A DNA stretch of 17,113 nucleotides, taken from the NCBI GenBank assembly GCA_045605805.1, contig JAZUQR010000019.1:1-17113 (forward strand), in the 5' to 3' direction. The notes beneath the pieces were generated by a model. That model saw only the letters and a list, made by a program, of their open reading frames with translations. It did not search any database and was not told the origin of the DNA. Positions 4,044-10,730 of the stretch are shown piece by piece (the first letter of the stretch is position 1; every line of letters begins with the position of its first letter). The DNA comes from Alphaproteobacteria bacterium (GTDB taxonomy: Bacteria > Pseudomonadota > Alphaproteobacteria > CAAHEQ01 > UBA3637). The position numbers and the translations under genes are program-made.

Positions 4044-4072
4044 TTTTTACTTCTTTTTTTCAAAAAAGTCAA
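4044..4072 (-). promoter_or_regulatory. Putative promoter for ihfB-accD embedded in the 3' end of atpG
   Basis: Minus strand TTGACT (4072-4067), 17 nt, TAAAAA (4049-4044, overlapping the atpG stop codon). Confidence 0.5.
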
Positions 4073-4967
4073 GTGGGGATTGATTTTTCTGTTTATTCAT
4101 TTCTTCGGCCCCAGATACAATGTCAATCAATTCATCTGTAATTTGCGTTTGACGCAATTGTTGGAACTCTAAATTAAACTTGTCTAACGATTCATCAATG
4201 TTTTTTTCGGCTTCCTGCATATGAACCATACGGGTATAGTGTTCCGAGGCCAAACTGGCAACCAAAGCATGAGATAAAGTGACAATCAGATATTCCCGCA
4301 ACAAACCAGCAAAAAGGTCGTTTTTATCGGCTGTAATCAAGGGAAGTGTGTGTCCATCCCATTTTGTTTTTTTTAATTGACGCATCTGTTGTTCCGGCAA
4401 AGGAATCATCTGCCTTGCAAAAGGGGAAAAGGCCGTTGTGCCTTGCTTTTTATTGGAGAAAATATACACATAATCCACTTTATGGGTTGAAACAATTTGG
4501 TTGATTTGCTTCAATAATAAAGCTGCCATCGGGGCAATCTCTTTTAACGAATTGGAAATCGGATACGATTTTTCCAAAGTTATTTTTTGTGATGCTGCTA
4601 ATAAGCCAATGCGTTTGCCAACTGCCAACACCCGCAATTCTGCGCCGCCAAGAGTCTTTTGAATGTAATCGTGCGTATAGGTGATTAAATCACGATTAAA
4701 ACGTCCCACAAGGCCATTGTCTGAACCAATGATAATGGCCAAAATCTTTGGATTTTTTGTGGCCGTTTTCGGTGGTGTATAGTGAAAGAAATCCTGAGTG
4801 AAAAGGCCATGAAAGGCATCTTTAATGGTGGTCGCATATAAGGTTAAAGAGGCTAAAGCCTTTTCATATTGCCCCACGCTGACGGAAGACAACATCTTCA
4901 TGGTGCTGACAATTTCACCCAAGTCAGAAGTTGTTTTTATGCGTTTTGTGAGGGATTCCAAAGTCAT
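4047..4967 (-). CDS. atpG: N-type ATPase F1 gamma subunit
   Basis: KRIKTTSDLGEIVSTMKMLS, IIGSDNGLVGRFN, SLASEHYTRMVHMQEAEKNI, RQTQITDELIDIVSGAE. Last gene of the N-ATPase order. Confidence 0.94.
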   Translation of the reverse strand: MTLESLTKRIKTTSDLGEIVSTMKMLSSVSVGQYEKALASLTLYATTIKDAFHGLFTQDFFHYTPPKTATKNPKILAIIIGSDNGLVGRFNRDLITYTHDYIQKTLGGAELRVLAVGKRIGLLAASQKITLEKSYPISNSLKEIAPMAALLLKQINQIVSTHKVDYVYIFSNKKQGTTAFSPFARQMIPLPEQQMRQLKKTKWDGHTLPLITADKNDLFAGLLREYLIVTLSHALVASLASEHYTRMVHMQEAEKNIDESLDKFNLEFQQLRQTQITDELIDIVSGAEEMNKQKNQSPLDFFEKKK

Positions 4968-6479
4968 TTACACTCCTTTAGAAGCAAGGGCTTTGCGAAA
5001 GGCGGTTAAAAGTTTTTCCTGCATTGCTTCATCAATTTTTTGGCGTTTGACGGTTATCTTTTCCACAATCGTCTTACAGTTTTGATATAAGGTTTTGTGA
5101 ATAATATCTTGCGCTTTTGAAATACTTTGTTCGGACAAAGTGTCAAACAGCCCATTATTGACCGCCAAGAATACACCAATCTGTGTGGCCACATCCATTG
5201 GCGCAAATTGCATTTGTTGCAACACACAGCGAATGGCTCGCCCACGATTGAGTTTTTGTTGAGTCGCTTCATCCAATTGAACACCAAACTTTGAAAAAGA
5301 TTCCAACTCTTCAAATTGGGAATAGAATAATTTTAACGGCCCCAGCAATTGACGATAAGCCGGCAATTGTGCGCTCCCCCCCACACGAGAAACAGAACGG
5401 CCTGTATCAATGGCTGGCATCATACCCTTTTGAAACATTGGGGCAGACAAATAAATCTGACCGTCTGTAATAGAAATCACATTGGTGGGAATATAGGCAG
5501 AAATGTTGCCAGCCTCTGTTGAAACAATCGGCAACGAAGTTAAAGAACCACCCCCCAATTTGTCACACAAATGTGTGGACCGTTCCAACAATCGGGAATG
5601 AATATAGAAAATGTCGCCAGGGAATGCTTCTCGTCCTGGTGGGGTGCGTAAAAGTAAAGACATTTGCCGATAGGCTCGGGCATGGGCGGTTAAATCATCA
5701 TAAACCACTAACACATCCCTGCCTTTTGACATAAACCATTCCCCAATAGAGGTAGCCGCATAAGGGGCAATAAATTGTAAGCCAGCTTCATCTTCTCCGG
5801 TTGCCACAACAATAACTGTTCTTTGCAACATACCGCCTTTGTCAATTTGAGCAATCACTTTTGCCGTATCGGTGCTGCGTTGGCCAATAGCACAGTAAAT
5901 ACAAATCATATCGCTTGATTTTTGGTTCAAAATGGTATCAACAGCAATGGCTGTTTTGCCGGTTTGTCTGTCACCTAAAATCAATTCACGCTGACCCAGC
6001 CCAATCGGAGTAAAAGAATCAATGGCTTTAATGCCAGTTTGTAAAGGTTGGTTGACGGGTGCTCTGTCCATAATGGCTGCCGCAGGTCGTTCCACTGGCC
6101 AAGCCTGTTTGGTGATAATGGGCCCTTTTTCATCCAAAGGTTGCCCCAATGGATTGATCACACGTCCCAATAGATTTTCCCCAACGGGAACTTCCAAAAT
6201 GCGCCCAGTTGGTTCGGCAAAATCACCGGCCTTTAAGGCATCGGCATTTGTTAAAAAAACAACACCAGCTGTTTTTTCTTCCAAAGAATGAACCATACCA
6301 ATCACGCCCTCCTTAAAAGTAAGAAGTTCGTTCATTTTGGCATTGGACAAGCCAGAGATTTGAGCCGTGCCAGCGGAAATGGATAAAATCTCATTTTTTT
6401 CTTTAATGCGTAAAGCAGGGTTCACTTTGCGAACAGCATTTTGAATGTTTTTTTGTGTTTTGACCGCAGTTTTTTTCAT
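4968..6479 (-). CDS. atpA: N-type ATPase F1 alpha subunit
   Basis: PIGLGQRELILGDRQTGKT (Walker A), VVYDDL, PPGREAFPGDIFYIHSRLLER, SAYIPTNVISITDGQ, SVSRVGG. Confidence 0.96.
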   Translation of the reverse strand: MKKTAVKTQKNIQNAVRKVNPALRIKEKNEILSISAGTAQISGLSNAKMNELLTFKEGVIGMVHSLEEKTAGVVFLTNADALKAGDFAEPTGRILEVPVGENLLGRVINPLGQPLDEKGPIITKQAWPVERPAAAIMDRAPVNQPLQTGIKAIDSFTPIGLGQRELILGDRQTGKTAIAVDTILNQKSSDMICIYCAIGQRSTDTAKVIAQIDKGGMLQRTVIVVATGEDEAGLQFIAPYAATSIGEWFMSKGRDVLVVYDDLTAHARAYRQMSLLLRTPPGREAFPGDIFYIHSRLLERSTHLCDKLGGGSLTSLPIVSTEAGNISAYIPTNVISITDGQIYLSAPMFQKGMMPAIDTGRSVSRVGGSAQLPAYRQLLGPLKLFYSQFEELESFSKFGVQLDEATQQKLNRGRAIRCVLQQMQFAPMDVATQIGVFLAVNNGLFDTLSEQSISKAQDIIHKTLYQNCKTIVEKITVKRQKIDEAMQEKLLTAFRKALASKGV

Positions 6480-9293: not shown

Positions 9294-10672
9294 TTATGGC
9301 CCTTTTTCTTGTGTTTTTGAACGGCTTCTTCCACAGTACCAATCATAAAGAAGTCATCTTCCGTATAATCATTAAATTCACCCGATAAAATGCGTTCACA
9401 GCCATCCAAAGTTTGCTTCAAATCAACTGAACGCCCCGCCATGCCCGTAAATTGATAGGTTGTATGAAACGGTTGAGTCAAAAAGCGTTCCAGTTTGCGT
9501 GCAGTTTGAACTGTTTGTTGATCTTTTTCTGGCAATTCATCAAAGCCCAACATCGCAATAATGTCTTTCAATTCTTCATACTGAGCCAAAGTACGCCTCA
9601 CTTGTGTGGCAATCCGATAGTGCCGTTCGCCCACCACCATAGGTGTCAGCATATTGGAATTGGATTCCAATGGATCCAGAGCAGGGTACAGCCCCTGAGC
9701 CGCCCGATTGCGTGACAGAACGATTGTGGAAGAAAGATGTTGAAAGGTATGAATGGCTGACGGGTCTGTAAAATCATCTGCCGGCACATAAACCGCTTGA
9801 ATGGAGGTAATGGCCGCATCTTTTGTGGAAGAAATGCGTTCTTCTAAATCAGCAATGTCTGTGCCTAAGTTGGGTTGATAGCCCACCCGAGAAGGGATTT
9901 GCCCCAAAGAAACAGACACTTCCGAACCAGCTTGTACAAAACGGAAAATGTTGTCAATCAATAATAAAACATCTGTTTTTTCTTTGTCCCGAAAGTATTC
10001 TGCCATGGTCAACGCAGATAAGGCTACCCGAAAGCGAACACCGGGGGCTTCATTCATTTGACCAAAAACCATAACAGTTTTGGATAAAACACCCGCTTCT
10101 TGCATTTCAGCATACAGCTGCGCCCCTTCACGAGAGCGCTCTCCAACACCGGCAAAAATGCTGACACCATCATACCTGCCCACCATATTGTTGATCATCT
10201 CGGTAATCAACACAGTTTTGCCCACACCAGCACCGCCAAACAAACCTGCTTTTCCCCCCCTTTCCATGGGAGCCAAAAGGTCAATCGCCTTGATGCCTGT
10301 AATAAAAATTTGATTAGACACATTCAATTCTGACAAGGGTTTGGGTTGTGCATGAATGGATTGTTGAACGGTTTTGGGTTCGGGCTTGTTATCAATCGGT
10401 TTACCCAAAGCATTCAACATCCGCCCCAGCACTTTTTTGCCAACAGGCACCTCAATCGGATGGCCTAAATCTGTCACAGCCATGCCCCGAGACAACCCTT
10501 GCGTAGACCCCATTGCCAAAGCACGCACAGTTGTTGCATTGACATAACCTTGCACTTCTAAAATCAAATCATCAATCGCCAATGCACCAAATACAGAAGG
10601 AAGATTCCCCTTAAATGCAACATGGACAACACTGCCGGAAATGGATGTAATTTTACCAAGATTGACTGACAT
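9290..10672 (-). CDS. atpD: N-type ATPase F1 beta subunit
   Basis: [15 protein letters not shown] (Walker A), [47 protein letters not shown]. Start at ATG 10672 with GGGGAA upstream; 10684 is the alternative. Confidence 0.96.
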
Positions 10673-10701
10673 ATTTTCCCCCATCTTTAATTATATAGCC
10701 C

Positions 10702-10730
10702 AGTGTAAAAGGTTTTAGGCTTGTTGTCAA
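10702..10730 (-). promoter_or_regulatory. Sigma70-type promoter of the N-ATPase operon
   Basis: Minus strand TTGACA (10730-10725), 17 nt, TACACT (10707-10702). Confidence 0.7.

Follow-up and report, generated by a model that had tools for sequence, protein, structure and literature searches.

An N-type ATPase as the sole rotary ATPase of a small alphaproteobacterial genome

The stretch of DNA analysed here, referred to as the window, is the whole 17-kb contig JAZUQR010000019.1 (C19; 17,113 nucleotides) of assembly GCA_045605805.1, an alphaproteobacterial genome that we label G000. It carries a nine-gene operon for an N-type (N1No, or "alternate F1F0") rotary ATPase, and this enzyme is the sole rotary ATPase of the genome. 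Both split operons of the ancestral F-type ATPase, which a sister species still retains, have been cleanly deleted. We consider it likely that a vertically inherited Na+-type N-ATPase became the only rotary ATPase after the canonical enzyme had been deleted, and that it serves mainly as an ATP-hydrolysing Na+ pump. This status differs from the published picture, in which N-ATPases are "always the second" copy, laterally mobile, and inferred to be incapable of taking over from the main synthase (Dibrova, Galperin & Mulkidjanian 2010, PMC2881411).

A complete N-type operon without a canonical counterpart

Nine consecutive open reading frames (ORFs) run along the minus strand from 4047 to 10684 in the order atpD-C-Q-R-B-E-F-A-G. 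All are intact, and their coordinates give 4-nt overlaps at the D/C, Q/R, R/B, and F/A junctions (Table 1). Pfam assigns every one of them, in that order, to beta, epsilon, the AtpI-like AtpQ, AtpR, a, c, b, alpha, and gamma. The same gene order recurs in 30 or more N-type loci of other phyla, whereas canonical loci read B-E-F-(H)-A-G-D-C. No separate delta gene was found in the operon, and Pfam detects OSCP there in no gene besides atpF. In the long b subunit, PF00430 covers residues 7-127 and PF00213/OSCP covers residues 99-246, the latter with 25.5 bits (cut-off 22.3), and by these assignments its delta/OSCP-like C-terminal part evidently replaces a separate delta subunit. AtpR displays two transmembrane arginines, in the motifs '..GR(I/L)..' and '..TR(F/L)..', which are kept in 21 aligned family members, G008 with a lysine in the second motif being the exception. 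Among NCBIfam profiles, the alternate F1F0 model is the top match for beta, alpha, gamma, c, and b, and the second for epsilon and a, behind ordinary equivalog models.

Judged by its sequence, the operon is thus a complete and ordinary, recognisable member of the N-ATPase family. It shares with the published description (PMC2881411) the gene order, AtpQ, a two-arginine AtpR, the missing delta gene, the long b subunit, a two-glutamate c subunit with the ESTxxY motif, and a beta subunit of the N-type clade. A sequence-only reading of the window had described a complete, tightly coupled N-type operon, and each trait on which it relied was found.

That reading had also proposed that the N-ATPase may be the only rotary ATPase of the organism, in place of the ancestral F-ATPase, and the searches of the entire genome bear this out. 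PF00006 detects the catalytic subunits of F-, V-, and A-type enzymes and was positive in 14 of 14 control genomes, including some with V/A-type enzymes only. In a six-frame search of all of G000, it returned the alpha and beta subunits of the window, Rho (450 amino acids, on contig C10), and one sub-threshold 20-bit match; FliI was not found in this search. Profile searches of the whole assembly likewise revealed no V/A-type enzyme, so that the check for canonical or V/A-type genes yielded nothing besides the operon's alpha and beta and Rho. PF00137 detects a single c subunit in G000 and in its relative G001, and two in each of G015, G013, and G022. The genome comprises 1,212,651 bp in 31 contigs and is 98.85% complete and 0.1% contaminated. 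With neither a canonical F1Fo nor a V/A-type enzyme in a genome of this completeness, the N-ATPase is the sole rotary ATPase of G000. The rule of a second copy only is an observed regularity and no structural criterion, and G000 does not follow it.

The ancestral state is visible in G015, a species of the same genus that has both enzymes. Its canonical enzyme is split into an F1 operon (L005 7890-12659; a delta-alpha fusion, gamma, beta, and epsilon) and an Fo operon (L006 6825-9061; AtpI, a, c, b', and b). In tblastn searches of G000 with the canonical gamma, epsilon, AtpI, a, b', and b of G015, there were zero matches, and the canonical alpha and beta matched nothing but their N-type counterparts (42% and 54% identity, respectively). 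The flanks of the F1 operon are neighbours in G000 on contig C22 (10063-10449 and 10643-11161, separated by a 193-bp gap), and those of the Fo operon abut on contig C4 (8089-9462 and 9446-10045). Both empty loci lie well inside their contigs. Because the flanks adjoin within intact contigs, the two operons were cleanly deleted rather than lost in an assembly gap. The sister species G009 displays the same two empty junctions, and in G047, an N-only genome of another genus, the F1 flanks are likewise adjacent. A 172-amino-acid ORF beside the deleted F1 operon was considered as a remnant of delta and rejected. No Pfam domain matches it, even with the threshold relaxed to E <= 5, and in G015, G009, G047, and G001 it is a conserved gene of its own.

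The canonical F1 operon, where relatives keep it, has features of its own. Delta is represented there by its C-terminal half only (OSCP profile positions 101-168), which is joined in frame with alpha; in G015, the fusion (L005 7890-9725) is a protein of 611 amino acids. Canonical alpha frames measure 574-698 amino acids across the family, compared with about 510-545 in most other families of the class. Delta-alpha fusions are mentioned in general terms in a preprint (10.64898/2026.10.01.756066). The canonical beta of G015 stands on a long branch (0.57).

An ordinary accessory copy, with a canonical F- or V-type enzyme left unassembled or the contig misbinned, would account for the same operon. 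The draft state of the assembly, in 31 contigs, and the fact that the window is one whole contig are what this explanation can draw on. Yet both ancestral loci are assembled across and found empty, G009 repeats the junctions, completeness and contamination are favourable, and the operon occupies the same locus in 20 or more relatives. The contig itself belongs to G000 and is not misbinned. It is the only place in the genome for tyrosyl-tRNA synthetase, accB, accC, accD, and NAD kinase, and its guanine-cytosine (GC) content matches that of the other contigs. The codon usage of the operon falls within the spread of the genome, 27% of 300 nine-gene blocks being equally far or farther from the genome mean, so that the suggested comparison of codons and GC content finds the operon matching its genome. 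An accessory copy is therefore extremely improbable.

Inheritance across the family

The distribution of the two enzymes was assessed in 61 genomes of the family from 16 genera by combining alpha and beta matches with c-subunit matches; for some genomes with two hits, the enzyme type follows from the alpha match listed and the c-subunit score. Among the matches listed, 38 of the 61 genomes have both enzymes and 11 have the canonical one only (G043, G052, G055, G063, G067, G070, G074, G077, G081, G083, and G085). Another 12, again among the matches listed, have N-type alpha and beta only (G000, G001, G004, G005, G009, G011, G012, G017, G019, G044, G047, and G048). G012 retains a canonical c subunit; the probable explanation is that both enzymes are present and that the F1 operon is missing from its assembly. 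The N-only count is 11 without it. Completeness is low in three N-only genomes (G044 at 85%, G005 at 86%, and G017 at 84%), and the N-only state is well supported in G000, G001, G004, G011, G019, G047, and G048, which are 91-99% complete. One canonical-only genome, G074 (genus g2, 98% complete), has canonical alpha and beta and no PF00137 c subunit, which may reflect a divergent c or an assembly gap.

An accessory operon scattered patchily among relatives, beside a canonical enzyme elsewhere in the genome, is not what emerged. The N-operon is present in 50 of the 61 genomes at a conserved locus, and it lies upstream of HU-accD in genera g1, g3, g4, and g28. In a beta tree of 87 rows, built by quick search with SH-aLRT support only (marked by asterisks), a branch with 99* support divides N-type from canonical sequences, and the beta of the window falls within the N-type clade. 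The 26 N-type betas of the family form a single clade (100*) on a branch of length 0.29, whose internal order mirrors that of an RpoB tree. A comparison of the AtpD phylogeny with the species tree had been named as a check. Since the operon holds the same locus across genera, its beta tree mirrors RpoB, and its codon usage is genome-like, these comparisons identify it as an old resident that is inherited vertically in this family of gut-associated Alphaproteobacteria with small genomes. In its sole status, its vertical descent, its fixed locus across genera, and its fully adapted composition, the G000 enzyme is unlike the N-ATPases of the 2010 description (PMC2881411).

The RpoB tree is unrooted and holds 21 rows, of which 20 were scored and G016 was left unscored. 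It resolves the genus into two fully supported clades, each pairing a lineage that has both enzymes with an N-only sister lineage. The first sets G015 (both enzymes) beside G000, G009, G020, and G007. The second sets G006, G013, G014, and G018 (both enzymes) beside G001, G003, G004, G010, G011, G016, G017, and G019. By parsimony, presence of the canonical enzyme changed at least three times on this tree, twice within the genus; with the tree unrooted, the count does not distinguish loss from gain. We read the changes as losses, since two operons would hardly have been re-inserted at the same two positions. In 16 genomes of the class that lie outside the family, the counts are of the canonical type only, barring one unexplained extra alpha-like match in G032.

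Ion specificity, membrane energetics, and direction of the enzyme

The c subunit contains Glu30 in helix 1 and Glu63-Ser64-Thr65...Tyr68 in helix 2. It aligns without gaps in the ion-site segments with the two-carboxylate Na+ ring of Fusobacterium nucleatum (3zk1), so that E30/E63/S64/T65/Y68 correspond to E32/E65/S66/T67/Y70. The ring of Ilyobacter tartaricus (1yce) is also among its structure matches, and the Na+ F1Fo synthases of both organisms have the same Na+ ligand set. Within the family, all 26 of 26 c sequences have E30, and 23 of the 26 have ESTxxY; in the remaining three, and likewise in an ETE variant of G047, the hydroxyl residues stand in swapped order. In the canonical c subunit of G015, the corresponding segment is ITEAIALY, without Ser/Thr ligands, which by motif rules suggests H+ coupling of that subunit. 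The ligand motif of the c subunit is the support behind the earlier proposal of Na+ coupling, and Na+ would be the better-supported ion.

An H+-coupled enzyme that took over the H+ pumping of the lost F-ATPase has to be weighed against this. The N-ring of Burkholderia pseudomallei is H+-selective despite its two glutamates, and the ProAD resource predicts 893 of 1807 N-ATPases to be of the H+ type, the sole-N lineage that it names among them (PMC11738941). The canonical c lost from G000, if it was like that of G015 and H+-coupled as suggested, would moreover have left an H+-pumping function vacant. However, the B. pseudomallei site reads E30/E61-T62-M63/Y66, with Thr-Met after the helix-2 glutamate (PMC5376962), and the G000 subunit has Ser-Thr there as in the solved Na+ rings. 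The conservation of ESTxxY in the family and the investment of G000 in a Na+ pump and Na+ exchangers also speak against H+, which we regard as an unlikely coupling ion in vivo.

Profile searches for complex I/Mrp, cytochrome bd, haem-copper oxidase, and Rnf/Nqr found none of them in G000, G001, G047, G015, or G022. Acetate kinase was found in G000 and G015. With no respiratory chain found and acetate kinase present, the description of a reduced fermenter fits the genome. Among the membrane proteins scanned, the only other primary ion pump is the beta subunit of a Na+-translocating oxaloacetate decarboxylase (OAD_beta, 2e-151). The remainder include a Na+/H+ exchanger, a Na+/Ca2+ exchanger, TrkH, PiT, MatE, two resistance-nodulation-division (RND) pumps, five major facilitator superfamily proteins, and SecDF. 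On contig C10 (L035), oadA and oadB lie at 91982-94892 on the minus strand, with a gene for GTP-dependent phosphoenolpyruvate (PEP) carboxykinase beside them at 96756-98633 on the plus strand. OadA, with HMGL-like, PYC_OADA, and biotinyl domains, is encoded just upstream of OadB, and a 53-amino-acid ORF preceding the pair may be oadG. This gene adjacency suggests a route from PEP through oxaloacetate to pyruvate that yields GTP and exports Na+. A search for an ATP/ADP translocase (TLC) gave no match in five genomes, nor any in the controls, so that it carries no weight; TLC is also not among the 67 membrane ORFs scanned.

OAD_beta occurs in 50 of the 61 family genomes and is missing from the N-only genomes G001, G004, G011, G019, and G048. 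In G001 (97% complete), a membrane pyrophosphatase extends over two contigs (C22:2448-3662 and C6:30523-31494); G000, G015, G022, and G047 are without it. The second pump that is paired with the N-ATPase therefore differs between N-only lineages.

From these elements, the likely operation of the system can be sketched. ATP would come from substrate-level phosphorylation through acetate kinase and PEP carboxykinase, as the gene content implies. A Na+ circuit would energise the membrane by means of two primary pumps, OadGAB and the N-ATPase. The latter most likely hydrolyses ATP, expels Na+, and builds a membrane potential, and this potential, together with the Na+/H+ exchanger, would serve H+- and Na+-coupled transporters and SecDF. 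The N-ATPase is probably reversible and could yield some ATP as long as decarboxylation maintains a high Na+ gradient.

Several points weigh against a sole, Na+-type, and mainly hydrolytic N-ATPase. The assembly is a 31-contig draft and no closed chromosome, and the absence of other rotary ATPases rests on the two ancestral loci and the whole-assembly searches. The membrane inventory was compiled with a crude hydropathy filter, and 67 of the 71 ORFs with at least four predicted helices were scanned with Pfam; the remaining four are the a subunit of the operon and three ORFs that lay beyond the regions retrieved. Every alternate F1F0 score is below the curated NCBIfam "exception" cut-off (Table 1). 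This shortfall would be explained by the long branch of the family's N-type beta clade, and the cut-offs serve annotation and do not define the enzyme biologically. OadGAB is encoded in G000, so a Na+ gradient can be obtained without ATP hydrolysis. In the literature consulted, the only N-type ring with a biochemical test of ion binding, that of B. pseudomallei, proved H+-selective, contrary to its sequence prediction (PMC5376962). Lastly, Na+-coupled ATP synthesis by N-ATPases is cited from other work in the preprint noted above (10.64898/2026.10.01.756066).

The last of these points, and the presence of OadGAB, lead to an alternative in which the enzyme and its history are the same and the main task is Na+-driven ATP synthesis in a Propionigenium-like Na+ cycle. 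PEP carboxykinase would carboxylate PEP with formation of GTP, and the decarboxylase would export Na+. The c-ring of the N-ATPase is presumably large in this view, so that the enzyme could convert the resulting low Na+ gradient into extra ATP. The adjacency of oadGAB to the carboxykinase gene and the wide occurrence of OAD_beta in the family are in keeping with it. So is the c17 ring of B. pseudomallei, which requires 5.7 ions per ATP, a high ratio that favours synthesis at a low gradient (PMC5376962). On the other side stand the five N-only genomes without OAD_beta. There the N-ATPase is retained where no decarboxylase can feed it, although a pyrophosphatase, tested in G001 only, is present in that genome. 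Oxaloacetate decarboxylation exports at most about 2 Na+ per turnover, and the yield would thus be a fraction of an ATP per PEP, in competition with the needs of transport. Synthesis as the main task appears improbable, although it is the foremost alternative, and we favour hydrolysis with Na+ export.

A broader proposition can be put forward tentatively and at some distance from the evidence. In it, the Na+-type N-ATPase, and not the H+ F-ATPase, would be indispensable throughout the family, the canonical enzyme would have been discarded at least three times, and the G000 enzyme would be a reversible Na+ ATP synthase/ATPase coupled to a bypass of PEP carboxykinase and oxaloacetate decarboxylase. 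We doubt it more than we trust it.

Promoter, neighbourhood, and place among known systems

A promoter-like element precedes atpD. Promoter-like matches across the region number 17, against 16.7 +/- 4.1 in shuffled sequence, and a promoter scan alone was rejected as evidence, the region being no richer than its shuffles. The pattern TTGAC[AT]-N16-18-TAnnnT nevertheless stands at the same position in 13 of the 20 upstream regions of relatives examined. The seven misses are G015 (a variant), G002 (an over-extended ORF start), G022, G023, G044, G047, and G048. Where the element is present, a GGGGGA Shine-Dalgarno sequence and an MS(V/L)N protein start are conserved downstream and the remaining spacer has diverged. 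The retention of the element while the rest of the spacer diverged suggests a real promoter. Given the conserved Shine-Dalgarno sequence and start, atpD probably begins at the ATG at 10672, with a leader of about 20-25 nt rather than about 10. A near-consensus promoter with a very short leader had been proposed; the promoter remains probable, and the leader is probably short without being extremely so. The element also occurs in G012, G013, G014, and G018, which keep the canonical enzyme, and therefore did not arise as an adaptation after canonical loss.

Short contigs from one library, X1 (a gut metatranscriptome, share 0.14), which differ at 2-15 of 231-510 letters, fall on atpG, atpA, and atpD. 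The X1 contigs also cover mlaD, nadK, tyrS, and the kinase gene. At a depth of 3-7, and from a library in which DNA may be present, they are no proof of expression and give no ranking, and bins that lack cover carry no meaning. Together with the conserved promoter-like element, this hint points weakly to constitutive expression of the N-operon.

Table 1. Features of the N-ATPase operon in the window, with profile scores and, where given, cut-offs (alt, NCBIfam alternate F1F0 model; aa, amino acids)
Feature	Position	Strand	Length	Evidence
Promoter-like element TTGACA-17-TACACT	10702..10730	-		Consensus match and phylogenetic footprint; transcription start predicted only
atpD, N-type beta	9290..10684	-	464 aa as longest ORF	PF00006 6.1e-71; TIGR03305 (alt beta) best match, 709.6 bits (cut-off 752)
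atpC, epsilon	8898..9293	-	131 aa	PF02823; TIGR03166 (alt epsilon) 99.3 bits (cut-off 100.1)
atpQ, AtpI-like small membrane protein	8540..8911	-	123 aa	PF09527 37.5 bits; TIGR02230 47.3 bits (above cut-off 46.7)
atpR, N-ATPase-specific membrane protein	8253..8543	-	96 aa	PF12966 36.7 bits (above cut-off 26); TIGR03165 weak, 22.5 (cut-off 55.5)
atpB, a subunit	7558..8256	-	232 aa	PF00119 2.6e-44; TIGR03306 (altF1_A) 239.4 bits (cut-off 302.1)
atpE, c subunit	7277..7555	-	92 aa	Predicted two-carboxylate Na+-type site E30, E63-S64-T65, Y68; alt 119.6 (cut-off 130.85)
atpF, long b subunit	6476..7267	-	263 aa	PF00430 and PF00213; TIGR03321 (alt B) best match, 132.5 (cut-off 224.7)
atpA, N-type alpha	4968..6479	-	503 aa	TIGR03324 best match, 699.2 bits (cut-off 750.5)
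atpG, gamma	4047..4967	-	306 aa	PF00231; TIGR03323 best match, 233.3 bits (cut-off 282.35)

Pfam identifies two MlaD genes, DUF2155, a 2-hydroxyacid dehydrogenase, accD, and HU on one flank of the operon, and NAD kinase, tyrosyl-tRNA synthetase, a hybrid histidine kinase, accB, and accC on the other. No mobility genes were found with Pfam in these flanks within the window, in agreement with the initial impression of core genes on both sides. The two MlaD-domain ORFs lie in tandem (363-971 and 898-1395) with a 74-nt overlap as called, and the same pair occurs in relatives. NAD kinase and tyrosyl-tRNA synthetase (window 10834-12838) sit between the histidine kinase gene and atpD in G000, G008, and G009. 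In G015 (L007), both are absent from this place and the kinase gene directly precedes the operon, a small rearrangement beside the promoter.

Elsewhere in G000, two long frames are either real fusions of a reduced genome or adjoining genes read through by the ORF caller. In one of 1504 amino acids (C26:4686-9200; L046:87-4601), an AcrB-type RND pump is joined to an outer-membrane factor that is TolC-like and has two OEP domains, and in one of 1077 amino acids (C27:105069-108302; L050:9270-12503), an LptF/LptG permease is joined to LptD. A TraG/VirD4-like coupling protein of a type IV secretion system and a TrbL/VirB6-like protein are encoded at C4:1648-3864 and C26:16990-19356; both may be connected with the partner dependence that has been proposed for bacteria of this kind.

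Comparison with known systems places the novelty in the status of the enzyme rather than in the operon: a sole, vertically inherited N-ATPase and repeated deletion of the canonical enzyme, in a non-respiring alphaproteobacterium. A lineage with an N-ATPase alone is already in print. ProAD (Litvin et al. 2025, PMC11738941) repeats the second-copy rule and reports one exception, the genus T78 of the Chloroflexota, where 18 of 20 genomes have an H+-type N-ATPase as their only rotary ATPase, so that the premise of the sequence-only reading, N-ATPases as accessory operons throughout, was already outdated. G000 resembles T78 in that the N-type enzyme is the lineage's only rotary ATPase. It differs in phylum, in the predicted ion (Na+ rather than H+), and in the recurrent canonical loss that synteny reveals in this family. 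The main text of the ProAD paper contains none of the terms "Alphaproteobacteria", "Rs-D84", or "Enterousia". Within the literature searched, no report was found in which the sole enzyme is an N-ATPase of an alphaproteobacterium or of the Na+ type.

The N1No enzyme of B. pseudomallei (c17, H+-coupled; Schulz et al. 2017, PMC5376962) belongs to the same family, has the same two-carboxylate layout, and has been proposed to act as an ATP-driven ion pump. Unlike the G000 enzyme, it is accessory to a regular F-ATPase, and its ion site differs as described above. Decarboxylation-driven anaerobes offer another comparison, with a Na+-translocating biotin decarboxylase and a Na+ rotary ATPase in a non-respiring cell, and G000 may work alike. 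Propionigenium modestum is known for such decarboxylation-driven Na+ physiology. The rotary ATPases of the I. tartaricus and P. modestum type are nonetheless canonical, with a separate delta and an atpIBEFHAGDC-type order, and the G000 beta falls outside the canonical clade; of the traits compared, the G000 enzyme has just the ion-site motif in common with them.

The description of reduced gut Alphaproteobacteria of the order Rs-D84 (Ca. Enterousia; PMC12306168) fits the family, and its resemblance suggests that the family belongs there. In the accessible portion of that paper, an "F0F1-type ATP synthase" is recorded in some Rs-D84 genomes without telling N- and F-type apart, and oxaloacetate decarboxylase is unmentioned.

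The findings indicate that an N-ATPase, supposedly accessory, can be the only rotary ATPase of a cell. Relatives with both enzymes, with the N-type only, and with the F-type only within one family amount to a natural knock-out series for the role, the ion, and the direction of N-ATPases. They also bear on how membranes are energised without respiration in gut bacteria of very small genome size, which a recent paper reads as partner-dependent. For attempts at culture, Na+ dependence and oxaloacetate/PEP metabolism may matter. If the broader proposition above is true, an alphaproteobacterium would live on a purely sodium-based chemiosmotic economy, and the view of the N-ATPase as unable to replace the main synthase would be overturned.

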